From Gemmatimonadales bacterium (lineage in GTDB: Bacteria > Gemmatimonadota > Gemmatimonadetes > Gemmatimonadales > GWC2-71-9): a DNA stretch of 33,412 nucleotides. The stretch covers positions 1-33,412 of the forward strand of contig DATCWW010000204.1 of assembly GCA_036566145.1 (NCBI GenBank), written 5' to 3'. A program made the translations under genes and the position numbers. This document shows positions 12,345 through 26,290 of this stretch, piece after piece; within the stretch, counting starts at the first letter, position 1; the number at the start of each line of letters is the position of its first letter. Under the pieces are notes generated by a model that saw nothing but the letters and a program-made list of their open reading frames with translations, was not told where the DNA came from and ran no database searches.

Positions 12345-12362
12345 ATCGGACCAAGGTCCAGT
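12345..12362 (+). promoter_or_regulatory. ACCAAGGTC-box copy S7 (ATCGGACCAAGGTCCAGT)
   Basis: Contains the perfect inverted repeat GGACC-AA-GGTCC and lies 36 nt upstream of the tamB-like ATG at 12399. Confidence 0.6.
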
Positions 12363-12398
12363 TTCCGTTCCGGGCGTCCGAACGGTACTCTGAGGCGG

Positions 12399-15300
12399 AT
12401 GCCTCGCCGCTTCGCGCGCCTCGCTCTCGCCTTGTTCACGGCAACGACGCTGGTCGCCGCCGGGGGCCTCACGGTCCTGGCCCTGGGCGGGGGAGACTGG
12501 GCCGTCAATCTGGTCCTTCGGAAGATCAACCCCTGGCCCGGCGCCTCCCTGCGTGCCGGCGACGTCATGGGCAACCTCCTCACCGCTCCCCGGCTCCAGC
12601 GTCTCAGCCTCACCCGGGCCGACGGCGAAGTCATCCTGCGAGCGGACAGCGCCGCCGTCCGATACGATCTCCGTCGCCTCCTCGGGGGTGACATCACGCT
12701 CGCCGAGATCCGCGTGTACGGCGCGGATCTGGTCCTGCGGCAACGGGACGACGGGCGCTGGGACCTTCCGGCCAGGCGCACCCGGCCGCCGGGATCCCCG
12801 CCCAAGCAGCCCGACGTCATTCGCCTCGAGCGCGTGCAGATCGTGGACGCGAGCGCGCGGCTCCGGCTCTTGATCGGGGGGAAGCCTCGGCTGCTGGCCG
12901 CGGACTCGATCGGCGCCGACGCGACCGGGATCCGCATCGATCCGGAGGTCACGATCGAGCAGGCTGTGGTCGGGTTCCGGGTGCGCTCTGGCGACCTCGC
13001 GCGCAGGCCGGTGACCGTCCAGGCTCAGGGATTTCTCCGACCGGCCGCGGTGACGGTACGGCGCCTCACCCTCGACTCTGACTCCAGCGCCGTCACCGCC
13101 AGCGGCATCGTACCGCTCGCCCGACGGGACGGGCGTGGGCCCGACCTGCGGCTGAGCCAGCTTGACCTCAGCGCTCGGCCGCTCGCGCTACGCGACCTTG
13201 GCGGCTTGCTCCCCATGCTCGACCGACCCGGCACCGCGAAGATCGAGGCCCACGCCCGCGGCGGGGACGACGGGGCGGCTGTCCGGCTCGACGCCGAGCT
13301 GTCCGATGGGGGCCGGGCGGCAGCCGAAGGGGTGGTGACGTTGTTTGGACAACGGCCCCTGCTCTACCGCGGACGGGCCACTGTCCGGGCCGTTGATCCC
13401 GGATTTCTCGGGCTCACACCTTCGCGTGGGGACCGGATCACCGGTGACGCGACGCTCGACCTTCGTGGTCCCGGGCTCGATCGGCTCGACGGTGAGGCCC
13501 GCGTTGACTTCACCGACTCGCGCTTCGGCCCCATCGCCATGACCCGAACCCGGGCACGCGGGACATTCTCCGCCGGACAGGCTCGGATCGCGCTGAGCGG
13601 CCGGTCCCCGCGAATGCAGCTCACGATCGCCGGAGACGTGCGCCCGTTCGACAGTCTGCCAACTTATGGCCTCGAGGCTCGGGTACGTCCGGGAGCCGCG
13701 GCTCCGGGCTGGGCGCGCCGACTCCTCGGCACCGGGTCGGCGGCCATCATCCAGGCCGACGGCGTCGGTGTGAGCCCACGGCGGGCGAACGCCGTGCTCG
13801 CCGCCAGGGTCGCTCCTCGTGCCGATGGAGACGGCGCGCTCGACTCGGGCTCGGTGCGGGTGCGCCTCCGCGGCGGCATCGCCAGGGCCGACGGCCGCCT
13901 TGGCGTATCGGGTGGTACCCTGACGCTCGATGGCGATGCCGTGCTCGATTCAGTGCCCCGCTACAGGCTCTCGGCCCAGCTCAATCGGGGAGATAGTCTC
14001 GAGGCCCGGCTGAGCCTCACCGGGAGCGGGACCGATCCGGATTCCGCCTCGGTGCAGGCGGCGATTTCGGGATCGGCCGCGTATGGAGCGCATCGCCTCT
14101 CCGGCGGTGGGCTGCGGCTCGCGCTCGACCGCGGGCTCGTTCGCGTGTCCGGCGGCGCCACGGTGGACGGCGCGGAGCTCGAGCTCAAAGGCAGCGCGAA
14201 GCCGTTCGGTTCCGAGCCGGCGGTGAATCTGGATCACATCCGGTTCGACGGTCTCGACCTGGGCCGCCTCGCGTCTTCCTCCGCCCCGCGGAGCGACCTC
14301 GCCGGTACAGGACGGCTTCGGGCGTCCCGTGCGGGTGGGCATTGGAACGGCTCGGCCGCCCTGGGGATCGCCGGGCGAATCGGCCGGGCCACCGTGGACA
14401 CGGCCAACCTGGTCGCCGTGATCCGGCGCGACGAGCTCACCGTCGATCTCGACGGCACCAGCCCCGCGGGACGGGTCACGGTGAGCGCTCTGGCACGCCC
14501 GTTCGACACGCCCAGGCGGTACGCGCTCCACAACGCCCGGTTCGACGCGCTTGATCTGGGACGGCTGCTGGGCTCATCGTCGCTCGAGACCAGCCTCACG
14601 GGCGGTCTCGAGGTCGAGGCCATGGCCCCGGAAGGCAGTCCCATGGCGCTCGACGCCACGGTCTCGCTGGACTCCTCCACGGTGAATCGCACCGTCATCC
14701 GGAACGGTGTGCTCCGAGCGAAGCTGGCGCAGGGCCGCTGGGACCTGCGCGGCCGGCTCCTGGGCGATGCCGATAGTCTGCGGCTCGAGGCCTCGCTGGA
14801 GCCCCAGCCGGACCAGCCCCACGTGCGGCTGACCGCCGAGGCCGGCGCCGGCGACCTCGGGACCCTGCTCCGACGGCCGGGGCTCCGGGCGCAAGGCCGG
14901 ACCCGGGTGGATTTCAGCGGGAGTTGGGGATCGCTCGAGACGATGCGCCTCGGCGGCACCATCGCCGCCGCCGGCGAGGCCAACGGCGTCGCGGTCGATT
15001 CACTCCAGGCGACGGTGCGGCTGGACGGGGGCGCACTCCTGATCGACACGTTGCGGGCGCGATCGAGCGTGGGAACGGCGGCGGCGCGCGGCAGGGTCGG
15101 GCTCGTCGGTGCGGCGATCGGCGGGCCGCTGGAGGGAACCCTCGAGGCCCGCATCGACGATCTCGCTCCGCTTGGACCGCTGCTCGGCGTGGAACCGCTC
15201 GGCATCGATTCGGGTCGCGTCGCGTTGGCGGTCGAGGGAACCCGGACTCGTCCGGCCGTGCGCGCCGAGGTCCAGGCCGCGGAGCTGACCCACGGGAGCT

Positions 15301-17438
15301 ATCGGATCCGGACGTTGTCGGCCACCGTCGCAGCTTCGCTGGATTCCGGCTACGCGCTGGCCCAGGGGACGGGACGGGTGCAGCTCGAAGGACTCAGCAG
15401 CGGCAAGCAGGGCGTGAGCCGGATGCAGCTCGAAGGAAGCTACTCCGACGGGCGAGGCGCCCTCATGGGCGAGGCCGACCTCGACGCGCACCGCCACGCG
15501 CGAGTGGCGGCCCGGCTGACTCGCGATGGTCACCGAGGCCGGGTCTCGCTCGACACCCTCGAGCTCACCGCGCAGGAGGATCGGTGGTCGCTGGCCCACC
15601 CGGTGGCCGTCGCCTACGAGGGGAGCTCGCGCCTGCACGTGAACGATTTCGTGTTCGCTTCGGAAAAGAGCCGCATCACGGCGAACGGGACGGTCGATCG
15701 CGGGGGCGAGCAGCGAATGCGTGTAGCGCTCGACACCGTGCCACTCGGCTGGATGACGGAGCTGCTGGGGTTGCCGGAGCTCGAAGGCGAGGCGACCGGC
15801 GGGCTGGAGCTGACCGGGCCCGCCGCGGCTCCCCGCCTGGCCGGGACTGTCGGGCTGGACCTTCGAGCCCGCCGAGAGCCCCTGGTCCGAGCCGCCGTCG
15901 GGGTGGACTGGCGGCCTGCCGACGGTCTGGGTGTCGAGCTGGGCCTCCACCAGCCCCGGGGCGACAGCCTGCGGATCGTGGCCCGGGCTCCCCTCATCCT
16001 CTCGCTCGCCGCGGACGACTCCGCCGCGGCCTTGGTGCGTCGCTCGCCCACCGGGGAGGTGACCCTCGACGCCACCGCCACGGACTTCCACCTCGATCCG
16101 TTCGAGCGGATGATGGATCCGGCGACGGTCACCACGCTGCGCGGCCGGCTCCGGCTGGACGCTCACGCGCGCGGCAGCCTCTCGGCGCCCCACCTGAGCG
16201 GCACCCTCGGCCTCTCGGATCTGCGCCTGAAGCTGACCCGGCTCGGAGCGACGTACGAGCACGGCGCGGTGCTCGCCAGCCTGCAGGGCCGGGACATTCG
16301 GGTGGACACGGCCCGGATCGAATCCGGCAAAGGCACGGTGGACGTGGGGGGCCTGGCGCGGCTCACCGATTCTGGAGCCGTAGCGCTCGACCTCACGGGC
16401 CGGTTCACCGACTTTCGCGTGGCCGACGCGGAGAACCTCCGCTCCACCGTCTCGGGCAACCTCGCCCTCGGCGGTACCGCGTCCGTGCCTGTGGTCAGCG
16501 GCACGCTGGCGCTGCGCAACACCGACTTCTATCTCCAGGTCACCAACCGAGAGCATGGTGGGGAAGAGGTCGAGCTCACTCCGGAGGACCTGCGCACCCT
16601 GGAGCGCAGATTCGGAGAAACCCCGCGGGCAACGCGGCGACTCGACGAGCATCCCCTGGCGCTGGACCTGGACGTGGACCTGGCCGGAAACGACTGGGTT
16701 CGCCGCCGCACCAGCCCCACCGTGGCCGTCGAGGTCGGGGGCAAGCTCCAGGTCCGCAAGCGGTCGCGTGAGCCGCTCCTGCTCTACGGCACGATCCGGC
16801 CTCTCGCCGGCCGAAGCTTCGTCGAGCTGCTCGGCCGGCGCTTCGACGTGACCGAGGGCGAGGTGGTCCTCGCCGGACCGCCCGAGCAGGCTCGGCTGCA
16901 GGTGCTGGCGGAATACCGGGCCGATTCCGGGAGTACGGCCGGCGGGGGCTCCCCGTCGGGTGTGATCATCACCACCCAGGTCGCGGTGGACAGCGGGCGC
17001 ATCTCGGTTGACCTCGGCTCGCGGCCGCGCATGAGCGACGACGACATCCGCTCCTACCTCGCCACCGGCCGGCCCGCTGGGACCGACCCCACCGGGACGG
17101 CCGACGAGAGCAGCGTCCTGGCTTCCACCACGTCGCTTGCCGTGGGCGCCGCGCTGGGGACGGTGGCCGGCGGCGCCGGCCGGCGCCTCGGCTTCGACGT
17201 CGTCCAGATCCTTCAGGACCGTCAGGGAAGCCAGACCCTGGTGGCCGGCAAGTACGTCTCACCGCCGCTCTACCTCGGCTTCCGCCAGCCCATCGTCGCC
17301 CGGGAGGAGCCGGGCCAGACCCAGACCGCCCGAACGACCATGGAATGGGAGGTGGAGTACGACGCCCTGCGCCGCGCGCTCCTCAACGTCCAGGCCTCGG
17401 GCGACGAGTTTCGCGTCTTCCTCCGGCTCCGGCGGTGA
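12399..17438 (+). CDS. tamB: translocation and assembly module protein TamB-like (AsmA-family, C-terminal DUF490)
   Basis: A 1679-aa ORF with an N-terminal signal-anchor ([26 protein letters not shown]). The body is long and repetitive with beta-helix-like character. The C-terminus [19 protein letters not shown]...EWEVEY...FRVFLRLRR is typical of DUF490. Confidence 0.85.
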
Positions 17439-19588
17439 CCGCCGGCGGGAAGAGCCTGCTGGCCCTCGGCCTCCTCCTGGCCCTGGTCCGGAGCGCCGTG
17501 GCCCAGGACTCGCTGATTCCGGTGCGGCGCGACGCGCAGGTGACCTCGGTCGGGTTCCGCTTCGCCGGCACCAGCAGCTTCTCGGATGGCGAGCTGGGCG
17601 CGCAGTTGGCGGTTAAGGGACGTGGCTCGCTGTACCCGGTGCGCCGATGGCTCGGGGAATTACCTCTGATTCCCTCCCCCGGCGCCTACCGATTCGATCC
17701 GGTCGAGCTGCAGAAGGACGTGGTGCGGCTCAGGCGATTCTACCGGCGGTCGGGCTTCATCCGGCCGCGCGTGGACTACGAGGTCCGGCTCGACCGGGGC
17801 GGCGCGCTGGTCGGGGTCATGTACCTGATCGACGAAGGGCCGTGGCTCCGGCTCCGCACCCTGGATTTGAGCGCCGGAGGGCGGGCGACCGTCCCGGCCG
17901 ACCTCGCGGCGGGCTGGGACGAGCTCGCCTCGACCTTGGCCGCGGCGCAGGGACGGCGCTTCGGCGAGGCCGAGCTCGCCGACGCGGAGGCCCGCACCGC
18001 GGCCTGGCTGCGTGAGCGGGGGTATCCCTTCGCCGCGATACGGTCGCAGCAGGAGGTCGATTCGGTGGCGGGCGATGTGCTGGTGCACCTGGCGGTGAGC
18101 CCCGGCCCGCGCATCCGCTTCGGCGAGATCCGCGCCGAGGGCAACACCTCGGTCACCGACCAGGTGGTGCTTCGGGAGCTGCCGTTCCGCACGGGCGACT
18201 GGTTCTCTACCAGCGCCGTCGCGGAAGGCCGGACCCGACTGCAGGCGGTGGACCTGCTGTCGCGAGCCGTGGTGGACGTCGACTCTCAGCCGGCACCCGA
18301 TTCGACGCTCGGGGTTCGGATCCGGATCGAGGAGTCGCGCCCCCGCCTGACCCTGGCGGAGGTGGGATACATCTCGGAAGGCGCGGGCCTCACCGGACGG
18401 GTGCAGTGGACCCATCCCAACTTCACCGGGGGCGCCCGCAGTCTGACGACCTCCCTGGAGGGTCAAAGCGGCAGGGGGACGATCGGCACCGAGGCCGAGC
18501 AGCTGCTGCGCGTCTCGCTCAGCCTCACGCAGCCCTACGTGTTGACCCCCCGTCTCTCGTTCATCGCCGGCCCGTGGGCGGAGTATCGCAACGACCTCCA
18601 CGACCAGTCCGGGGCAATCGGGATCGATGCGACCCTGGTGTACCGGCTCGCCGCGCTCTCCTCGCTCGCGCTGGGCTACCGATTCAGTGCCAGGAACATC
18701 CAGGAGTATCACTTCGGTGACATTACCGCGGGCGACGTCGATCTCCTGGCGCTCCTCGCCGCGCGCTACCCGCCTCTGATCGACTCTCTGGGGGACCACG
18801 AGAACCGGAGCAGCGTTACGCTGGCCGCGTCGTTCAACCGGGTGGACGACGTCTCCAACCCGACCCGGGGGTGGCTGATCCGCCCCTCGGCGGAGCTGAC
18901 GGTTCCCTCCGCCTGGAACACGGCGGAGTTCGGAAGGCTCGACCTGTCGGTCTCCCGGTTTCAGCCCCTGAGCAAGTCGACGGTTCTGTCGGGCCGTCTC
19001 ACGCTGGGGCGGCTGTTCCCATTCGGCAAGAGCATACCTGGCCCGGGAAGCGACCCGTTTTTCTCCTTCATTCACCTGCGCGACGAGTCGATGACGGCTG
19101 GAGGAACCAACGATGTCCGTGGGTGGGGGGACCGGAAGCTGGGACCCAAGGTTCCCGACGTGGAGGCCAACATCGAGGGGACGGACACGGTGCTGACGGC
19201 CGACCGCTACGCCCCGATCGGGGCCCTGGCGCGGATGACCGGCTCGGTAGAGCTCCGCTTCCCCGCCCCGGGCTTCTCCCCGGGTTGGAGGGGGCACCTC
19301 TTCCTCGATGGGGGCCGGGTGTGGACGCCGGACGACCGCTTCGCCCAGAGTCCGTTGTTGCCTGAGGGCGCGCCATTCCGCTTTTCAGCCGGCGTCGGTC
19401 TGAGCTACCAGACGCCGGTCGGGGCCCTGGGCGTGAGCATGGCTTACAAGCTCAACCCGTCGCTGCTGGACGAGCGCGACCCAAATGATGTGACTCAGGC
19501 GCTCGAGGCCGGAACCTCGGTCGAGGATCTCCCGACCCAGTGGCTCCGGCGCATCCACCTGCACCTGTCCTTCGGAGTGGCGCTCTGA
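17435..19588 (+). CDS. Omp85-family outer-membrane protein with about 3 POTRA domains (TamA/BamA-like partner of TamB)
   Basis: Track ORF 17345..19588; the preferred start is the GTG at 17435, which overlaps the tamB stop (GTGA). Signal peptide is KSLLALGLLLALVRSAVAQ and contains no Cys, so the protein is not a lipoprotein. POTRA-like repeats are followed by a surface-antigen barrel ending ...HLHLSFGVAL. Confidence 0.8.
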   Translation: MTAGGKSLLALGLLLALVRSAVAQDSLIPVRRDAQVTSVGFRFAGTSSFSDGELGAQLAVKGRGSLYPVRRWLGELPLIPSPGAYRFDPVELQKDVVRLRRFYRRSGFIRPRVDYEVRLDRGGALVGVMYLIDEGPWLRLRTLDLSAGGRATVPADLAAGWDELASTLAAAQGRRFGEAELADAEARTAAWLRERGYPFAAIRSQQEVDSVAGDVLVHLAVSPGPRIRFGEIRAEGNTSVTDQVVLRELPFRTGDWFSTSAVAEGRTRLQAVDLLSRAVVDVDSQPAPDSTLGVRIRIEESRPRLTLAEVGYISEGAGLTGRVQWTHPNFTGGARSLTTSLEGQSGRGTIGTEAEQLLRVSLSLTQPYVLTPRLSFIAGPWAEYRNDLHDQSGAIGIDATLVYRLAALSSLALGYRFSARNIQEYHFGDITAGDVDLLALLAARYPPLIDSLGDHENRSSVTLAASFNRVDDVSNPTRGWLIRPSAELTVPSAWNTAEFGRLDLSVSRFQPLSKSTVLSGRLTLGRLFPFGKSIPGPGSDPFFSFIHLRDESMTAGGTNDVRGWGDRKLGPKVPDVEANIEGTDTVLTADRYAPIGALARMTGSVELRFPAPGFSPGWRGHLFLDGGRVWTPDDRFAQSPLLPEGAPFRFSAGVGLSYQTPVGALGVSMAYKLNPSLLDERDPNDVTQALEAGTSVEDLPTQWLRRIHLHLSFGVAL

Positions 19589-19589
19589 C

Positions 19590-20189
19590 TCAGTTCACCG
19601 CGTAGCCCCGCCCCTGGAGGCAGGTCGCCATCGACTTGGCGAAGGTCTTCCGGGACTCCGCGTTGGCTGCCTGCGCCGCCTGCTTCCCCTGTTGGCCCGC
19701 TTGAGCCTCGGCCTGCTTGCGCGCCTTGCGGCCCTTTACACCGCCGGCGACCGCCCCCACCGCGGCGCCATCTCCCGCGTCACCCACGATCCCCCCCACG
19801 ACCGCACCGCCCACGGCCCCTCGGGCCGCACCACCGACGGCGGCCCCAGTGGCGGCCGAATCCGCCTTGGCCGCTGCGGCCTTGCCGGCGGAATCGGCGT
19901 TCACTTGCACATTCGGGTCGATGCCGGTTTGCTCGCCGGCCCACTGGTAACACTCCTTTTCATCCTTGGCCTGCTGGTCCTTGGTTTGGCCCTTGGAGGG
20001 ATAGACCGACAGGCCCAGCCCGCTGGCGAGTTTGGGGTCCACCGCCGGGCTGTCCGCGACCACCCGAGGAGGAAGGGCCGAAAGAGCGGCTCCGGAGACG
20101 GTGGTATCCGGTCGCGGGATATCCACGGGGGCCGCGGCGCCGACCAGGGCCGTGGTGAGCGTGATGAGGACGGGTCGCGAGAAGCGCAT
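19590..20189 (-). CDS. secreted glycine-zipper protein
   Basis: Track ORF 19590..20276, trimmed to the ATG at 20189 (GGAGGAG upstream). Signal peptide is MRFSRPVLITLTTALVGAAAP. The Gly-zipper is GAAVGGAARGAVGGAVVGGIVGDAGDGAAVGAVAGG. There are conserved Cys residues near both ends of the mature domain. Confidence 0.65.
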   Translation of the reverse strand: MRFSRPVLITLTTALVGAAAPVDIPRPDTTVSGAALSALPPRVVADSPAVDPKLASGLGLSVYPSKGQTKDQQAKDEKECYQWAGEQTGIDPNVQVNADSAGKAAAAKADSAATGAAVGGAARGAVGGAVVGGIVGDAGDGAAVGAVAGGVKGRKARKQAEAQAGQQGKQAAQAANAESRKTFAKSMATCLQGRGYAVN

Positions 20190-20270
20190 GGCTCCTCCTG
20201 GAGCTCGGGAGGTGAGGGTCGCCCCGGATGGGGCCTGTCTGAGGGTAGGTAGCGCGGGAGCCGGGCGATA

Positions 20271-20287
20271 CTGCACCTCGGTACAGG
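20271..20287 (+). promoter_or_regulatory. weak box-like sequence (CTGCACCTCGGTACAGG)
   Basis: Lies immediately upstream of copy S8 in the same orientation. It shares the CTGCACC half and GGT; the second half is degenerate. Confidence 0.25.
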
Positions 20288-20288
20288 C

Positions 20289-20308
20289 ACTCGACCAAGG
20301 TCCAATGG
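20289..20308 (+). promoter_or_regulatory. ACCAAGGTC-box copy S8 (ACTCGACCAAGGTCCAATGG)
   Basis: Lies 31 nt upstream of the ATG at 20340 of the POTRA-less Omp85 operon and contains the exact core plus CCAATGG. Confidence 0.6.
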
Positions 20309-20339
20309 GCAGCCGGCCTTGGCACGGCTACCGTGGCCC

Positions 20340-21542
20340 ATGCGGCATCGCCGGCTTGTGGGACTGCTGGTCGCCACCCTCGTGGTCCAGGGGGGCGTCG
20401 CCCGGGCGCAGGTGGCCGGGGACACCGCTGGCGCGCCCCAGCGGGACGTGATGGACATCCTGAACCGGGTCCTGCACGGCCCGCCCGACAGCGGGGTGGT
20501 GGACACCCCTCCCAAGGTGGTCATCGCGGTCCTGCCGGCGTTCTCGGTCAACCCGGCTTACGGCGTCCTCTTCGGAGTATCGGGAACGATGCTCACCCGC
20601 CTGGGGCCGGAGGAGACTACCAATTCCAGCAATGCGTCCGTATCGGTCAACTACACCACCAAGCAGCAGTTCAACGTCCTGGTGCGCTCCAACATCTATG
20701 GCCCCCACAACAAGCTCCTGCTGCAAGGGGACTACCGCTACCTCGACACGTCGCAGCCGACCTACGGACTCGGACCGGCGCAACCGGAATCGCAGAAGGA
20801 CGAGCTGGAGTACAAGCTCATCCGAATCTATCAGACGGTGTACCGGCCAGCCACCGGGCGCGTCCTTGTGGGGGTAGGCTACCACCTCGACAACTATTAC
20901 GAGATCGTGGACCCCAACTTCGAGCAGGGCCTCCCGTCTCCGGTGGTGGACTACAACGGAGGCAAGCACGAGACCCACAACGTCGCCTCAGGCCTCTCCC
21001 TCGATCTCGTGTTCGACGATCGGGACAGCCCCATCTATGCGACCACTGGTTACTACATCAACGCGGGTTTCCGCGTCCACACGACCTGGCTCGGGAGCGA
21101 CAGCGATTGGCAGAGCTTCCAGTCCGAGTTCCGGACCTACAACCGGATCGGGGCACGGGGCGTCTTCGCGGTGTGGGCGAGCAACTGGTTCACCTTCGGC
21201 AAGCCTCCGTATCTCGCCCTGCCGTCGATCGGCTGGGACACCTACGCCCGGAGCGGCCGGGGCTACGCCCAGGGGCGGATCCGGGGCGAGAACCAGCTCT
21301 ACCTCGAGGGGGAGTACCGGGTCTCGCTGTCGCGTGACGGGTTCTGGGGAGCGGCGGCGTTCGTGAACATCCTCGCGACCACCGAGCCGGCCACCGAGCG
21401 CTTCGGACGGGTGGACCCGGGCTACGGCGTCGGGCTCCGGATCAAGCTCAACAAGCGATCGACCACCAACATCACCGTTGACTACGCGTGGGGTGCGGAG
21501 GGCTCCAATGGCCTCTTCCTGGGGACTGGGGAAGCGTTCTAG
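20340..21542 (+). CDS. Omp85/surface-antigen (D15) family beta-barrel without POTRA domains
   Basis: Track ORF 20319..21542; the preferred start is the ATG at 20340 (MRHRRLVGLLVATLVVQGGVARAQ). It is a barrel-only protein of about 400 aa. The late motif is GRGYAQGRIRGENQLYLEGEYR and the C-terminus is ...LFLGTGEAF. Confidence 0.7.
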   Translation: MRHRRLVGLLVATLVVQGGVARAQVAGDTAGAPQRDVMDILNRVLHGPPDSGVVDTPPKVVIAVLPAFSVNPAYGVLFGVSGTMLTRLGPEETTNSSNASVSVNYTTKQQFNVLVRSNIYGPHNKLLLQGDYRYLDTSQPTYGLGPAQPESQKDELEYKLIRIYQTVYRPATGRVLVGVGYHLDNYYEIVDPNFEQGLPSPVVDYNGGKHETHNVASGLSLDLVFDDRDSPIYATTGYYINAGFRVHTTWLGSDSDWQSFQSEFRTYNRIGARGVFAVWASNWFTFGKPPYLALPSIGWDTYARSGRGYAQGRIRGENQLYLEGEYRVSLSRDGFWGAAAFVNILATTEPATERFGRVDPGYGVGLRIKLNKRSTTNITVDYAWGAEGSNGLFLGTGEAF

Positions 21543-22914
21543 AGGTCGGTGCCGGCTGCTCGGCTGGGCCGTCGCCGGACTCTTACTGCCCGCGACCGGC
21601 CTGGCGCAGGTCGCGCCGCCGGCGACCAACTACGAATGCCCCTCCTGCGAGGGACACATGAGAACCTGGACCGCTCTCGCCGAGGTGGGGCTGGTTCAGG
21701 TCGCGGTGAACTGGTTCGGCCATTACATCGTGGAGGATTCCTCCCAGGCGGTCACCCTGGCAAGCTGGGGGGACAATCTTCGCGAGGGCTGGGAGTTCGA
21801 CGCCAACCACTTCAGCACCAACCAGTTCGCCCACCCCTACAGCGGGAACATCAACTTCAACGCGGCCCGGGCCAACGGCCATGACTACTGGCAGTCGATT
21901 CCGTTCGCCGCGATCGGGAGCTTGATCTGGGAGTACCTGGGGGAGATCCACCGGCCGTCCCTCAACGACTTCATCAGTACCACAGTGGGCGGCGTGGCCC
22001 TGGGGGAGTTGACCTGGCAGCTTTCGGGCCTGGTGCTGGACAACCAGGCCACGGGCTCGAGCCGGTTCTGGAAGGAGATGGCCGGCATGGGCATCAACCC
22101 GGCGCGGGGGTTCAACCGGCTCTTCTTCCACGACTGGAGCCGGGTCGGCCCCAACCCGTCCACCCGAACACCGGAGCTGATGCGGGGAAGCATGCGAGTC
22201 GGGGCCCGTCTGGTGGACAAGGGTGGCGGGATCGAGAAGGGCGAGCTACAGCCCTTCATCGGCTTCGATTTCGTCCACGGTGATCCGTTCACTCAGCCGT
22301 ACACCAAGCCGTTCGACGTGTTCCTCTTCAGCGCCCAGGTGAACGCGGGGGACGCCAAGATCATCGGCCGGCTCACGACCTACGGGCGGCTCTACAGCAA
22401 GCGACTCGACAGCCGGCCGGAGCCGCGCCACGTGCTCATCCTGACCCAGGACTACGACTACGTGAACACCTTCGCCTATCGGGTCGGTGGCCAGAGCGTG
22501 AACCTGGGGGTGCTCAGCCAGTTCAACCTGAACCCCCGGTTCAGACTGGCCACGAGCGCCCGGGCGCAGGGCATCATCCTCGCGGCGGTGAACTCGGAGT
22601 TCGTCGAAGGTCCGGCGCGGGATTACGATTTCGGTCCCGGGCTGGGGCTGGCCCTCGGCGGGCTGCTGACGCGGGAGCGGGAGCAGATCGCCAGGGTGGG
22701 CTATCGCGCCCAGTGGATCCACAACGTCAACGGGCTGGCTGGCGACCACGTCCTTCAGGAATTCACCGTCGACGTCACCATACCCATTTCGCAGACCCTC
22801 GCCGTGGGGAGCCAGGTGCTGTACTACCACCGGCACAGCGCCTACCGCACCGAGCCGACCGTCAGCGACGATACGCCGCAGTTCCAGGCCTATCTGCGCT
22901 GGGGGCTCCAATGA
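21508..22914 (+). CDS. DUF3943-like secreted/outer-membrane protein
   Basis: Track ORF 21478..22914; the ATG at 21508 overlaps the upstream gene by 35 nt. Signal peptide is ...LLGWAVAGLLLPATGLAQ. The motif FSTNQFAHPYSGNINFNAARANG resembles the DUF3943 signature as I recall it. The C-terminal half looks beta-rich and ends ...YLRWGLQ. Confidence 0.55.
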   Translation: MASSWGLGKRSRGRCRLLGWAVAGLLLPATGLAQVAPPATNYECPSCEGHMRTWTALAEVGLVQVAVNWFGHYIVEDSSQAVTLASWGDNLREGWEFDANHFSTNQFAHPYSGNINFNAARANGHDYWQSIPFAAIGSLIWEYLGEIHRPSLNDFISTTVGGVALGELTWQLSGLVLDNQATGSSRFWKEMAGMGINPARGFNRLFFHDWSRVGPNPSTRTPELMRGSMRVGARLVDKGGGIEKGELQPFIGFDFVHGDPFTQPYTKPFDVFLFSAQVNAGDAKIIGRLTTYGRLYSKRLDSRPEPRHVLILTQDYDYVNTFAYRVGGQSVNLGVLSQFNLNPRFRLATSARAQGIILAAVNSEFVEGPARDYDFGPGLGLALGGLLTREREQIARVGYRAQWIHNVNGLAGDHVLQEFTVDVTIPISQTLAVGSQVLYYHRHSAYRTEPTVSDDTPQFQAYLRWGLQ

Positions 22915-23468
22915 GGGCCGGCGGGCGGTTGCTCCTGCTGCTGGCGCTGGCACCAGCGCCACTTTCCGCTCAGGCCTGGTACACCATCGGGGCCGGCGCC
23001 GGAGGCAATCGGGTCGACTGCGAGAACTGCGAATCGATCGAGCGGTTCTGGGGGGGGAGCGGCTACCTGCGGGCCGGGGGCACGGTGGGTGAGCACGTGC
23101 GGGTGGGCGGCGAGCTCGTCTTCTGGCAGAAGTCGATCGAGGGATCGGACGCCTATCTTCGCGCGATCGAGGGTGTGGTGCTCTGGCACCCCTCACCGCC
23201 CGGTGGGTTTTTCGGACAGGCCGGGCTGGGACTGGGCCGGATCCGGAACGTCTTCACGACGGAGGGGACCACCGTTCGCGCGTCGGAGACCGGACTCAGC
23301 GTGATGGTGGGAGTGGGCTACGACCTGCGGGTCGGGAACCGGGTCTTCCTGACGCCCAGCCTGATGAGCATCGCGGTGCCGGCCGCGACCATCGACACGC
23401 CCGCCGGGCCCCTCGACAACATGGTGGCGACGCTCTTCTTCGCCGGGCTCGGCGTCACCATCCGCTAA
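22911..23468 (+). CDS. small outer-membrane beta-barrel protein
   Basis: Track ORF 22713..23468, trimmed to the ATG at 22911, which overlaps the upstream stop (ATGA). Signal peptide is MRAGGRLLLLLALAPAPLSAQ. The sequence has a Gly/aromatic beta pattern. Confidence 0.7.
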   Translation: MRAGGRLLLLLALAPAPLSAQAWYTIGAGAGGNRVDCENCESIERFWGGSGYLRAGGTVGEHVRVGGELVFWQKSIEGSDAYLRAIEGVVLWHPSPPGGFFGQAGLGLGRIRNVFTTEGTTVRASETGLSVMVGVGYDLRVGNRVFLTPSLMSIAVPAATIDTPAGPLDNMVATLFFAGLGVTIR

Positions 23469-26290
23469 TCCTGCTCGGCGGACGCGTCCGGGACAGGGAG
23501 CCGCAGATGGAAGGTGGCTCCCCCGTCCCCGTTGTTGTCGGCCCACAGGCGTCCCTCGTGGGCCGACACGATCGAGCGGCAGATCGACAGGCCGAGGCCG
23601 AGCCCATCGGGCTTCGAAGTGAAGAACGGCTCGAAGATGAGCTGCATCTCCTCCGATGGTATCCCCGTTCCCCGATCGGCCAGCGACAGCTCCACCGTGT
23701 CATCCGCGCCCGCGGCGGTCGAGATCGTCACCCGCCGGTCGAGCGCGTCGGGCAAGATCGCGTCGCAGGCATTGAGGAGCAGGTTGAGCAGCACCTGCTG
23801 CATCTGCACCCGGTCGGCAAAGACCCCCGGGAGGTCCGGGGCCAGGCCGCTCGTGTCCACTGTGACCCGCCGCTGGATCAGGTCGCTGTGGATCAGCGTC
23901 AGCACCTCGCACACCACCTCGTTGAGGTCCACCGGGCCGAGCTGCATCTCCCCCTTGTGGAGGAACGCGCGGAGGCGGGCGATGACCTCACCCGCCCGCC
24001 GATCGGCATCTGCGATCTCGCCCAGGATCTCCCGAACCTCGGCCAGGTCGGGAGGCTCCTGGGCCATCAGCCGCTGGGCCGCGCGGGCATTGGCCAGGAT
24101 GGCGGTGAGCGGCTGGTTCAGCTCATGGGCCAGCGCGCCCGACAGCTCCCCCAGCATGGCGACCCGGCTCAGGTGCGTCACCTGCAGGCGCTGCTCCTGC
24201 GCCTCGGCTTCGGCCTGCCGCCGCGCGGTCACGTCGCGGACGAAGGTGAGGTAGCAGGCCTCCCCGCCCACCTCGACCCGCTCGGCATCGATGGTAACCT
24301 GGCGGACCTCACCCGCGTGGGTCCGCAGCTCCAGCTCGTAGTCGCGGACCGGATTCCCGGCATCCAGCAGCCCGAGCAGTCGCTCACGGTCGCCCGGCGC
24401 GACGAACATCCCGAGATCGGCCGCCGTCCGACCGACCGCCTCCTCGCGACGGTAGCCAAACACGGCCTCCCAGGTATCGTTGACCTCCAGGATGCGGGCA
24501 TCGCGCTGCCGGGTGATCTGAATCGCCTGGGGGCTGGAGCGGAAGACGAGGGAGAACCGCTCCTCCGAGCTTCGCACGGCCTGGTCGGACCGGGTTCGCT
24601 CAGTCACGTCGTGGACGAAGCCGACCATGCGCGACACCACACCGCGGGCGTCCCGGAAGAAGTGCCCCCGATCCTCCACCCAGATCACCTGGCCGTCCTT
24701 GCGCCGGAATCGGTAGGTGAGGCGGAAGGAGTCGTGGGTGGCCAGGACCCGGGCGACCTCGGCCTCGAATCGGGGACGATCGTCGGGATGAACCTTCTCG
24801 ACCCAGCCCGCCAGCCCGACCCCTATCTCCTGTTCGGTGTATCCGAGGATCCGCTCGAGATCTCCCCCGTAGCGGACATCGTTGGTCCGCGAGTCCCAGT
24901 CGTAGAGCAGCTGGTTGCTCGACTGGATCGCGGCCTCGTAGCGGTTCTTCCATTCGCTCACCGTGGCGTACGCCATCTCGCGCTCGGTGATGTCGGCGTT
25001 CACGCCGATCAGACGGCGGGGCCGTCCGACCTCATCCGGAAGGGCCGCCGCCTTGGCGTGGATCCAGCGAACCGAGCCATCGGGATGCCGGATCCGGAAT
25101 TGGACGTCGTACGGCGCGCCCCCGTCCGCCGCGCCTTCCAAGGCAGCGGTGACCGTGGGGCGATCCTCCGGCATGACGAGCTGGAGGAGCCGCGCCAGCG
25201 TCCCGTCACCCGTCGCCGGAAGCCCGAGGAGGGCCGCCGAGCTGTCGGACCAGACGCCCCGGCCGGTGCCGATCTCATACTCCCAGGTGCCCATCTGCGC
25301 CGCATCGAGCGCGAGCTTGAGCCGCTGCTCACTCGCGCGCGCCCGCCCCTCCGCCGTCGCCCGCTCGCGGGTGATCGCCGTCAGGGTCATGAGGGGAATG
25401 GCGACCACGATCAAGAAGGACTGCACGGACACGACGTTGGCGGCGGCTGTGTCGGCCGCGAACGGCCCCTTGCCGGCGACCGCGCCGGCGACGGCGAGCA
25501 GCGCCACCAGCAGCAGACTTCCGCTGGTGGCCGGTGGTCCGAACCGGACCGCGGCCCAGAGCAGAAACGGCAGCGGCGCATACAGCAGCGCCGGGCTGGT
25601 GTTGGTCTCGGGCGCCGCACGGGTGAACACCAGAAGACAGACCATCGTCAGCATGCTGCCCAGCACGGCCGCCTCGAGCGCGCGAGGACGGGACAGCCGG
25701 CGGAAACCTCGCACCCCTGCCTCACCCCAGGTGACGATCAGGGGTACGAAGGTGAGCTGGGCGAGCAGGTTGGAGAGGAACCGTACCCTCCAGTTCTCCC
25801 AGTACCCGGTCGACCCCCAGTCGTTCAGCCGCACGAAGCCTGCGTCCAGGAAGCAGGAGAGGAAGACGCTCGTGAGGGCCGCCACCAGGAATACCCCGAC
25901 CCCCCGGAAGGTGTCGAACCGAGCGATCCGTCCACCCAGCGCCTGGACCACGAGAGCCCCGATCAGCGCCTCGCTGGAGTTGCTGATGAACCAGCAGAGG
26001 ATCATCGGGAGCGGAATGCCTGACCACAGCTCGACCAGGAGGTGGGCTGGAAACGCGCCCAGCAGAACGACCCACCAGCGTCGCCGGGGGGTGAGCAGGA
26101 GCAGTCCGAAGAGGATGGCGTTGGGCGGCCACAGCGTGGAGATCGGCTGGGGACGCATGGTGAGCGTCATCCCCAGCTCGGCGGCAAACAGGTACGCCAA
26201 GCCCGCCAGCGCCGCCATGGCGGGGGTCGAGAATCCCCCGCGCGACTCGGCGGATGATGTGACCGGGGAAGATTCGGCGAGCGTGGTCAC
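23465..26290 (-). CDS. sensor histidine kinase: MASE1-like membrane domain, three PAS/PAC domains, FixL-type HisKA, HATPase_c
   Basis: A 941-aa ORF with a GTG start. The N-terminal 300 aa or so is polytopic (LWPPNAILFGLLLLTP..., MASE1-like). There are three PAS-like modules. The H-box is LGELSGALAHELNQPLTAI. The ATPase boxes are LLNLLLNACDA, DRGTGIP and GLGLGLSICRSIV. Confidence 0.85.
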   Translation of the reverse strand: MTTLAESSPVTSSAESRGGFSTPAMAALAGLAYLFAAELGMTLTMRPQPISTLWPPNAILFGLLLLTPRRRWWVVLLGAFPAHLLVELWSGIPLPMILCWFISNSSEALIGALVVQALGGRIARFDTFRGVGVFLVAALTSVFLSCFLDAGFVRLNDWGSTGYWENWRVRFLSNLLAQLTFVPLIVTWGEAGVRGFRRLSRPRALEAAVLGSMLTMVCLLVFTRAAPETNTSPALLYAPLPFLLWAAVRFGPPATSGSLLLVALLAVAGAVAGKGPFAADTAAANVVSVQSFLIVVAIPLMTLTAITRERATAEGRARASEQRLKLALDAAQMGTWEYEIGTGRGVWSDSSAALLGLPATGDGTLARLLQLVMPEDRPTVTAALEGAADGGAPYDVQFRIRHPDGSVRWIHAKAAALPDEVGRPRRLIGVNADITEREMAYATVSEWKNRYEAAIQSSNQLLYDWDSRTNDVRYGGDLERILGYTEQEIGVGLAGWVEKVHPDDRPRFEAEVARVLATHDSFRLTYRFRRKDGQVIWVEDRGHFFRDARGVVSRMVGFVHDVTERTRSDQAVRSSEERFSLVFRSSPQAIQITRQRDARILEVNDTWEAVFGYRREEAVGRTAADLGMFVAPGDRERLLGLLDAGNPVRDYELELRTHAGEVRQVTIDAERVEVGGEACYLTFVRDVTARRQAEAEAQEQRLQVTHLSRVAMLGELSGALAHELNQPLTAILANARAAQRLMAQEPPDLAEVREILGEIADADRRAGEVIARLRAFLHKGEMQLGPVDLNEVVCEVLTLIHSDLIQRRVTVDTSGLAPDLPGVFADRVQMQQVLLNLLLNACDAILPDALDRRVTISTAAGADDTVELSLADRGTGIPSEEMQLIFEPFFTSKPDGLGLGLSICRSIVSAHEGRLWADNNGDGGATFHLRLPVPDASAEQD

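Follow-up and report, generated by a model that had tools for sequence, protein, structure and literature searches.

Three overlapping genes in a 33,412-nucleotide stretch of Gemmatimonadales DNA (contig DATCWW010000204.1; hereafter the window), each predicted to encode an exported barrel protein, pose the question of whether tight coupling of this kind marks a dedicated outer-membrane machine or a local coincidence of gene order. We approached it through the folds, domain architecture, residue conservation and neighborhood statistics of the trio.

The genes are all on the plus strand, at 20340-21542 (gene 1, product P0001), 21508-22914 (gene 2, P0002) and 22911-23468 (gene 3, P0003), in agreement with the close coupling described in the initial annotation. 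Gene 1 stops with TAG at 21540-21542 and overlaps gene 2 by 35 nt, the gene 2 ATG at 21508 having GGAGG 6 nt upstream. The size of this overlap depends on start-codon choice, and the junction varies among relatives, from 35 nt of overlap in L003 and 1 nt in L004 to a 23-nt gap in the P0129 contig. Genes 2 and 3 meet in ATGA, which combines an ATG at 22911-22913 with a TGA at 22912-22914. The gene 3 stop, TAA at 23466-23468, overlaps that of a convergent MASE1-PAS histidine kinase gene (23465-26290, minus strand), a gene that L004 and the P0129 contig also have there. Within the trio there was no noteworthy terminator or sigma-70 promoter consensus; the sole terminator-like match lies inside gene 3, against 1.4 expected by chance. 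The overlaps, the Shine-Dalgarno sequences and the missing terminator suggest that the three genes are co-transcribed. Judged by eye—a basic n-region, a hydrophobic core and an A-x-A or L-x-A site followed by Q—all three products carry signal peptides, as had been proposed, with cleavage predicted after A23, A33 and A20 for genes 1, 2 and 3. The view that all three are outer-membrane proteins is supported.

The 400-residue gene 1 product (signal peptide, residues 1-23) scored weakly with PF01103 Omp85 (18.1 bits, under the gathering cut-off of 24) and, in its C-terminal half only, with NCBIfam NF047779 Omp85_fam (59 bits vs a cut-off of 200). The Omp85 assignment was made despite the weak PF01103 score because the AF2 model (pLDDT 83.4) shows an Omp85 fold, with 16 strands across residues 60-395. 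The top 50 Foldseek matches of this model in the PDB were all TamA, BamA or Sam50, the best being TamA 4c00 (E 3.7e-12), and a PF01103 match is precomputed for many family members of 50-68% identity. The PDB holds no sequence relative of the family with a solved structure. The loop between strands 11 and 12, as placed by the model, contains G306-R-G-Y309 (21255-21266, plus strand), corresponding to the Omp85 loop-6 motif (V/I)RG(F/Y); across 45 family members G306 and R307 never vary and Y309 hardly does. The C-terminal residue is Phe, and a conserved N-terminal helix motif, Q34-R35-D36...D39, is special to gene 1. The Pfam search gave no POTRA (PF07244) match at E≤1, upholding the original reading of this protein as POTRA-less. 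A cryptic POTRA was also rejected: no HMM matched, and the 36 mature residues before strand 1, with a single 10-residue helix in the model, leave room for one short helix only.

Barrels of this type were described as "noNterm" Omp85 by Heinz and Lithgow in 2014 (PMC4104836), and Leptospira LIC12252/12254/12258 are further examples (Bettin et al. 2024, PMC11358297). Gene 1 resembles them in its 16-strand Omp85-fold barrel, its lack of periplasmic POTRA domains and its variable gene neighborhoods. The Leptospira/Cytophagales noNterm group, however, has a DUF5982 N-terminal signature covering the first two strands, and DUF5982 was not among the Pfam matches of gene 1 at E≤1. The TamA/BamA insertases match gene 1 best in structure (TM 0.5-0.7), and gene 1 shares with them the loop-6 RG(Y/F) and a D-x-R-D-x-P-x-x-G strand motif but, unlike them, has no POTRA. 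Origin as a recent duplicate of the neighboring TamA-like gene was considered and rejected, there being no significant sequence similarity between the two proteins (hhalign E 0.14) and only the D-x-R-D...P-x-x-G motif in common. Judging from the modeled fold, gene 1 is an Omp85 barrel of the known noNterm class; its family is centered on Gemmatimonadota, with at least 869 metagenome relatives.

The gene 2 product (468 residues; signal peptide, residues 1-33) matched PF13084 DUF3943 over profile positions 1-107 of 108 (E 2.4e-34; 117.9 bits, cut-off 27), so that its earlier description as DUF3943-like was correct. The AF2 model (pLDDT 89.6, pTM 0.86) comprises a helical domain, residues 53-206 (21664-22125, plus strand; Pfam DUF3943 match at 21787-22101), followed by the protein's own 12-strand beta-barrel, residues 225-467 by DSSP (22180-22908, plus strand). 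Foldseek with this model returned only generic outer-membrane barrels (OpcA, Tsx, OmpG, Pla) and no PDB match for the helical domain; for this family too, the PDB holds no sequence relative with a solved structure.

The first view of DUF3943, as a domain with no assigned function, needs updating. In eLife (2025, PMC12419801), Burroughs, Aravind and colleagues named it "YfiM-Griddle", a branch of the Lipocone superfamily, and predicted that it acts in the outer membrane to modify the head groups of lipids; it is mostly fused or adjacent to barrels, with 670 fusions and >200 adjacencies in their data, and its phosphoesterase or transesterase activity on head groups is likewise a prediction. Gene 2 has the features of this group: an end-to-end PF13084 match, a four-helix cone with His, Glu and Asp plus a further acid, and an hhsP hairpin with its Pro. 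H109, E142, N153 and D154 are invariant in 48 homologs with identity down to 24%, and E146 and P198 are ≥90% conserved in these and invariant in 24 closer ones. H109, E142, E146 and D154 sit on model helices 102-121, 127-144 and 152-176, and the conserved residues fit the H2-His, H3-Glu, end-of-H3 acid, H4-Asp and hhsP hairpin of PMC12419801. The hairpin, at the C-terminal end of the domain, consists of helices 183-196 and 198-206 joined by the turn G-I-N-P198. Helices H1, H3 and H4 have GRAVY values of 0.7-0.8, less than typical transmembrane helices. The order of domains, Griddle N-terminal to a fused outer-membrane barrel, the adjoining gene for a further small barrel, and the tandem arrays seen in relatives of gene 2 (up to three DUF3943 copies) also agree with the published loci. 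On the other hand, that paper names no noNterm Omp85 neighbor and reports POTRA in only 8 loci, whereas gene 2 here follows a gene for a POTRA-less Omp85, in one clade only.

Gene 2 might instead be a non-enzymatic structural or transport protein whose helical domain plugs or gates the barrel, the trio then being co-regulated porin-like proteins. Griddle activity is indeed predicted only, the barrel matches include channels such as Tsx and OmpG, and the neighbors of DUF3943 genes are very diverse (permeases, sulfatases, TonB receptors). Yet the polar His, Glu, Glu, Asn and Asp residues are invariant or nearly so down to 24% identity, and the conserved Griddle positions correspond to catalytic ones in PTDSS1/2 and TelC (PMC12419801). 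Phosphoesterase genes are, moreover, recurrent neighbors: PAP2 three times, and Exo_endo_phos, Metallophos and GDPD. We consider a non-enzymatic gene 2 protein unlikely. Of the functions first suggested, lipid handling is plausible for gene 2; a complex dedicated to insertion, secretion or lipid handling was not borne out, as set out below.

The third protein proved to be a small barrel, as had been thought (PF13505 OMP_b-brl, 32.3 bits, cut-off 28.7); it has 185 residues and a conserved C37-x-x-C40. Homologs of gene 3 lie directly 3' of DUF3943 genes at 10 loci in the phylum, at L075/L076 and at 16 of 74 cross-phylum loci. At L075, gene 2 is 49% identical and is followed by a gene 3-like barrel, and the upstream genes differ from those in the window; the same succession occurs in Rhodothermales and Longimicrobiales MAGs. 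The gene 2-gene 3 pair thus recurs over several genera and phyla. DUF3943-barrel proteins have two alternative small partners, the CxxC barrel or a lipoprotein of ~145 residues, and in a tree the partner type tracks DUF3943 clades. A CPxC motif preceding helix 1 of gene 2 is found chiefly in the clade with the lipoprotein partner, and no co-variation was seen between the CxxC motifs of genes 2 and 3. From sequence and gene order, genes 2 and 3 appear to form a cassette of two genes that in other genomes is passed on together.

Gene 1 stands apart from this cassette. The complete trio was found only in the window's narrow clade (the window, L003, L004, L077 and the P0129 contig), with gene 2 at least 65% identical. 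Outside the clade, the nine other gene 1 ortholog loci, from eight sampled genomes, had no DUF3943 neighbor; several of these orthologs are instead preceded by a response regulator gene, an OMP_b-brl gene and a HisKA_3 kinase gene. Conversely, none of ~125 other DUF3943 loci had gene 1 alongside. The surveys, which included a related-loci search with a 24-sequence alignment, covered about 55 loci within the phylum and 80 across phyla; the only surveyed locus with a gene 1 neighbor, L077, is a member of the window's clade. At L068, L155 and L134, opposite-strand genes of the gene 1-like or Omp85 kind do lie 4-6 kb from DUF3943. When 107 large neighbors encoded in the same direction as DUF3943 genes were tallied by Pfam family, Omp85 appeared only twice: one instance is the TamA of L077, the internal control, and the second may be the gene 1 of L077, and at most one Omp85 neighbor came from outside the clade. 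Because gene 1-like barrels score weakly on PF01103, a family HMM was applied as a further screen for gene 1-like neighbors, and the outcome did not change.

These distributions bear directly on the initial proposal of a single outer-membrane machine built from all three proteins and devoted to insertion, secretion or lipid handling, with the DUF3943 protein taking the place of the periplasmic module absent from the POTRA-less Omp85. The translational coupling of the genes, the export of all three products and the persistence of the trio across the window's clade, at identities as low as about 65%, are consistent with such a machine, and DUF3943 is enriched in genomes that carry gene 1 (six of nine, vs about 12% of other genomes). 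The co-occurrence could hint at a functional tie but is confounded by kinship, four of the six genomes belonging to the window's genus. The proposal is countered by the absence of gene 1-gene 2 adjacency beyond the clade; lack of neighborhood conservation had been named among the refuting outcomes, and the trio is a conserved neighborhood in that clade only. Five genomes (G019, G081, G170, G108 and G104) carry gene 1 and DUF3943 on separate contigs, and in G078, G129 and G278 gene 1 is present with no DUF3943 anywhere in the genome. L070 carries a gene 1 of 62% identity, in the order TamB-TamA-x-gene 1-kinase, with the cassette missing. L070 may have lost the cassette or the window's clade may have gained it, two histories that look alike without a rooted species tree. 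Even within the clade the gene 1-gene 2 junction is not fixed, as noted above. The architecture of gene 2 also argues against a surrogate adaptor, this protein having an enzyme-like conserved triad in a helical domain fused to its own barrel, and no POTRA-like beta-alpha-alpha-beta-beta fold. A dedicated three-protein machine is therefore very improbable.

The genes upstream raise the possibility of a different association. A tamB gene (12399-17438, plus strand; PF04357, 3e-39) and a tamA-like POTRA+Omp85 gene (17435-19588, plus strand; PF01103 1.1e-38, PF07244 3e-16) precede the trio, from which they are separated by a minus-strand gene for a Gly-zipper protein (19590-20276); in L004 that position is empty of it. 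A near-palindromic "envelope" box with the core ACCAAGGTCC lies at 20294-20303 (plus strand), 46 nt before the gene 1 ATG at 20340, where the initial annotation had placed a box ahead of the operon, and this box is kept in the window, L003 and L004. The same core occurs 49 nt before tamB (12350), and further copies in the window lie at 844, 2442, 3566, 8820 and 11106. Genes 1-3 might accordingly be accessories of a TamB/TamA-centered lipid-homeostasis unit under one box regulon, with TamB delivering phospholipid, the Griddle enzyme remodeling it and the Omp85 barrel docking or inserting.

In favor of such a unit are the nearly equal spacing of the box before tamB and gene 1, and the TamB-TamA-gene 1 adjacency in the window, L003, L004, L077, L070 and the P0129 contig. 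Beyond the window's clade, TAM adjoins DUF3943 in one independent case, a Calditrichaceae MAG in which TamB-TamA is divergent from DUF3943 (the arrangement at L156), and a few published loci have Griddle beside POTRA and "TamB-porin" genes (PMC12419801). Against it, the two independent TAM-DUF3943 adjacencies among ~125 loci compare with ~0.8 expected, as estimated from locus and genome sizes, a number not above what chance would produce. The TAM-like locus pointed out earlier is present, with tamB and the tamA-like gene upstream, but, the Calditrichaceae case aside, the adjacency holds in the window's clade alone. At the nine other gene 1 loci, neither TamA nor TamB lies as near as about three genes to gene 1, the minus-strand gene intervenes in the window, and the box is a general envelope-gene signal, unspecific to these genes. 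With the window-clade genes excluded, the box was found upstream of only 1 of 61 other DUF3943 genes, so the cassette itself does not carry it. We regard TAM accessory status for genes 1-3 as quite unlikely. Recruitment of a noNterm Omp85, a Griddle enzyme and a CxxC barrel beside tamB-tamA under the same box, to form a joint lipid-homeostasis unit, TamB delivering phospholipids and the Griddle enzyme remodeling their head groups, is decidedly unlikely as well.

The reading we favor, and think probable, is that the locus is a composite operon, formed in one narrow Gemmatimonadales clade from a noNterm Omp85 gene and a separate Griddle cassette. Both parts belong to kinds already described, and the data can be explained without supposing that gene 1 is tied, physically or functionally, to genes 2-3. 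In the composite operon, gene 1 would be a stand-alone Omp85-fold barrel under its own box-type envelope promoter, positioned behind tamB-tamA in the window's clade and behind a LuxR-type two-component system in other genomes, and the gene 2-gene 3 cassette would occupy the space between gene 1 and the convergent kinase gene. The Lipocone domain of gene 2 would be joined at its C-terminal end to the protein's 12-strand barrel. After Sec export, this barrel would anchor the four-helix cone, which is moderately hydrophobic, to the outer membrane on its periplasmic side. There, His109, Glu142 (and Glu146) and Asp154 might act on the head group of a lipid, attacking a phosphoester and either cleaving or exchanging the head group, as proposed for the Lipocone superfamily. 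The gene 3 product would be the cognate barrel partner of gene 2; any contacts between the trio's proteins, like the catalysis, substrate and orientation of gene 2, would be predicted ones. Outer-membrane enzymes that act in situ on lipids, such as PagP, PagL, LpxR and OmpLA, have the active site within the barrel. They may offer a functional analogy for gene 2, whose predicted active site, unlike theirs, lies in an appended helical Lipocone domain and whose barrel looks anchor-like.

Each gene of an apparent "mystery operon" thereby gains a concrete identity backed by the literature, and the three-gene arrangement is seen as a local accident of gene order rather than a conserved machine. The work provides a high-confidence model of a Griddle Lipocone domain with a 12-strand barrel and an intact predicted catalytic set, and it brings out a large Gemmatimonadota family of POTRA-less Omp85 proteins as part of a putative box-controlled envelope regulon. 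A TAM-linked lipid-homeostasis unit, if true, would give noNterm Omp85 and Griddle Lipocone proteins their first physiological context. The families of the trio would be reasonable entry points to outer-membrane lipid modification beyond Proteobacteria.

Three open reading frames make up the trio on the plus strand at 20340–23468, within DNA of high GC content (~0.69) whose genes have homologues carrying the names Gemmatimonadales or Gemmatimonadota. Gene 1 (P0001, 400 aa) runs from ATG 20340 to a TAG stop at 21540–21542. The most plausible start of gene 2 (P0002, 468 aa) is ATG 21508, because a basic n-region and hydrophobic core result and a GGAGG lies 6 nt upstream; gene 2 therefore overlaps gene 1 by 35 nt. 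The TGA of gene 2 and the ATG of gene 3 (P0003, 185 aa) are shared as ATGA at 22911–22914, and gene 3 ends at 23468, its stop overlapping that of a convergent MASE1-PAS kinase gene. On the upstream side, tamB is followed by a tamA-like gene with POTRA domains, and a Gly-zipper gene on the minus strand comes between this and the trio. The layout given in the initial annotation (three plus-strand genes, 35-nt and ATGA overlaps, and a box ahead) was thus correct in every particular. The Gly-zipper gene (19590–20276) is missing from L004, the locus of a relative, and its homologue flanks the gene 1 orthologue of genome G081 (L062).

The core of the box, ACCAAGGTCC, which recurs in the window, occupies 20294–20303, 46 nt ahead of the gene 1 ATG, and an identical core lies 49 nt ahead of the tamB start. 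The box ahead of gene 1 is kept in two relatives (L003 and L004); in a survey leaving out window-clade genes, it was upstream of 1 of 61 DUF3943 genes. Core-to-start spacing is nearly fixed, at 46–49 nt, for gene 1 and tamB (20294–20342 and 12350–12401 in the window; L003:4199, L004:4743), and a TACCGT/TACTCT-like element stands ~7–20 nt before the ATG of both genes. Spacing and element together suggest very short leaders or leaderless transcripts.

Profile searches with gene 1 gave 18 bits for PF01103, under the cut-off, 59 bits for NF047779 against a cut-off of 200, and no POTRA match. The AF2 model, built on an alignment of 45 homologues (pLDDT 83.4), has 16 strands (residues 60–395) and only one short helix (37–46) between signal peptide and barrel. 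Its best 50 PDB matches in Foldseek were all TamA, BamA or Sam50 barrels (best E 3.7e-12, TM ≤0.69), and the Omp85 loop-6 motif is present as G-R-G-Y (its first two residues invariant, the Tyr nearly so) in the long loop that joins strands 11 and 12. Because the 16-strand model, the Foldseek matches, the motif and the lack of a POTRA match agree, the predicted structure identifies gene 1, as had been proposed, as an Omp85 barrel without POTRA domains. This makes it a member of the class that Heinz and Lithgow called ‘noNterm’ (PMC4104836) and that has been studied in Leptospira (PMC11358297); gene 1 differs from the Leptospira-type proteins in not belonging to the DUF5982 type. The family includes at least 869 metagenomic relatives of ~400 aa each. 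Recent duplication of the window's TamA-like gene was ruled out as the source of gene 1 (hhalign E 0.14).

Gene 2 matched PF13084 (DUF3943) with E 2.4e-34, which bears out the earlier description of the middle protein as DUF3943-like. The accompanying statement that DUF3943 lacks an assigned function has been overtaken, since Burroughs and colleagues (eLife 2025, PMC12419801) placed the family, as ‘YfiM-Griddle’, within the Lipocone superfamily and predicted phosphate-linked lipid head groups in the outer membrane to be what it acts on. In their account it is ‘nearly obligately’ joined to OMP barrels by fusion or operonic linkage, at times in arrays of up to three, and they listed 670 Griddle-barrel fusions, with POTRA in only 8 loci (PMC12419801). 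The AF2 model of gene 2 (pLDDT 89.6, pTM 0.86) shows a helical domain (residues 53–206) followed by a 12-strand barrel (225–467) that resembled only generic outer-membrane barrels in a fold search. The active-site positions proposed for the Lipocone superfamily fall here on H109 (H2), E142 (H3), E146 (the acidic residue closing H3) and D154 (H4). All 48 homologues, the most distant at 24% identity, share H109, E142 and D154 without exception; E146 and the hairpin-turn P198 are at least 90% conserved in the same 48 and invariant in the 24 closer ones. Helices H1, H3 and H4 are moderately hydrophobic (GRAVY 0.7–0.8), which is consistent with Sec export and a subsequent interfacial position. All this makes gene 2 a typical and intact representative of a family whose in silico description dates from 2025. 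Just ahead of helix 1 it carries C-P-S-C (C44–C47, 21637–21648), a CPxC that the window clade shares with the lipoprotein-partner clade and that the other barrel-partner clade does not keep.

Gene 3 scored above threshold for PF13505 and has a conserved C37-x-x-C40 (23019–23030) near the first turn, kept in all P0003-like partners. Two recurrent classes of gene lie directly 3′ of DUF3943, a lipoprotein of ~145 aa (11 phylum loci; 11 of 74 cross-phylum loci) and a P0003-like CxxC barrel (10 phylum loci; 16 of 74 cross-phylum loci, Rhodothermales and Longimicrobiales among them); further DUF3943 loci have other small barrels upstream. Partner type tracks DUF3943 clades, and the two types are mutually exclusive, the P0003-type barrel being absent from the lipoprotein loci (L005, L007–L011, L014, L017, L020, L021 and L026; e.g. 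L010:10716–11168). The lipoprotein (~140–150 aa) has a lipobox Cys and no Pfam match, and its gene usually overlaps that of DUF3943 by 4 or 13 nt. One genus has tandem arrays of 2–3 DUF3943 copies with the small lipoprotein last (L007 (G138:C3), L008, L009, L010, L014), 3′ of genes for MsrA and a DUF1295/ICMT-like membrane methyltransferase. The C-terminal barrel signal is atypical in genes 2 and 3: gene 2 ends in WGLQ (22909–22911), and members of the P0003 family have a terminal Arg as part of a conserved (T/F)(V/I/F)R (23463–23465). Gene 1 has the customary aromatic residue (Phe) at its C-terminus. In relatives of ~65% identity a second small OMP_b-brl gene (193 aa), absent from the window, follows the P0003 homologue (L004:7950–8531, L077:10001–10582).

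The initial annotation had proposed a dedicated complex in which the DUF3943 protein replaces the missing POTRA module. In a sample of 301 phylum genomes, DUF3943 was present in 42 and gene 1 orthologues (E<1e-80) in 9, the window's own genome included; five had both genes on different contigs (G019, G081, G170, G108, G104) and three had gene 1 with DUF3943 absent (G078, G129, G278). We fetched ~8 kb either side of each match, called genes with a heuristic GC3-based caller and labelled them with family HMMs. This screen, which may miss very divergent Omp85 barrels, found gene 1 beside none of ~55 phylum DUF3943 loci and DUF3943 beside none of 9 other gene 1 loci; the sampled genomes are related, and the neighbourhood counts are descriptive, not statistical tests. 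The order TamB-TamA-gene 1-gene 2-gene 3-kinase is kept in close relatives (L003, 89%; L004, 66%; the P0129 contig; L077, 65%). L070 (gene 1 62% identical) has TamB-TamA-x-gene 1-kinase with nothing between gene 1 and kinase, and L075 (gene 2 49% identical) has genes 2 and 3 behind MarC and FGE-sulfatase genes. Elsewhere, gene 1 orthologues come last in a conserved run of LuxR-type response regulator, small OMP_b-brl barrel, HisKA_3 kinase and noNterm Omp85 (L060, L061, L062, L071). Across phyla, gene 1 adjoined DUF3943 only in L077 among 80 loci, and a Pfam tally found Omp85 in 2 of 107 co-directional large neighbours, at least one of them from L077, a control locus. The triad is therefore conserved only in the window's clade, and this, with the architecture of gene 2, contradicts POTRA replacement. 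Because DUF3943 has recurrent downstream partners and adjacency to gene 1 is clade-limited, the conserved unit is gene 2 plus gene 3, and gene 1 stands apart from that unit and has a promoter box of its own.

Looser Omp85-DUF3943 proximity, at 4–6 kb on opposite strands, occurs in L068, L155 and L134. In L068 (5818–12489) a gene 1 orthologue and a DUF3943-lipoprotein pair lie 4 kb apart, with DUF202, OmpA-like, FGE-sulfatase and MIP genes in between; FGE-sulfatase or sulfatase genes recur near gene 1 (L071) and near DUF3943 (L075). In L134 (7806–16225, a Flavobacteriales MAG) convergent genes for Metallophos and GDPD phosphodiesterases come after DUF3943, and at a distance of 5.7 kb there is a different POTRA-less noNterm Omp85 (399 aa, PF01103 1.1e-7). 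TAM and DUF3943 also adjoin independently in another phylum, in L156 (1818–9206, a Calditrichaceae MAG), where TamB and POTRA-bearing TamA share one strand and DUF3943 and a 218-aa unknown gene diverge from them. This single adjacency, the box common to tamB and gene 1, and the co-occurrence of gene 1 and DUF3943 (6 of 9 genomes, a count that kinship confounds) speak for a looser tie of the trio to TamAB and lipid traffic, a reading we regard as improbable.

The observation itself is real and its components are of known kinds: one is a noNterm Omp85, the other a YfiM-Griddle-barrel accompanied by a partner barrel. Their three-gene linkage is lineage-specific. We propose a composite putative operon confined to this clade, in which a box-driven noNterm Omp85 gene precedes a Griddle-barrel and small-barrel cassette that would have either landed between gene 1 and the kinase gene or disappeared from this position in L070. 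Judging from the superfamily analysis and from the conserved residues, the cassette most likely supplies an outer-membrane-anchored predicted enzyme acting on lipid head groups, together with its cognate barrel partner.
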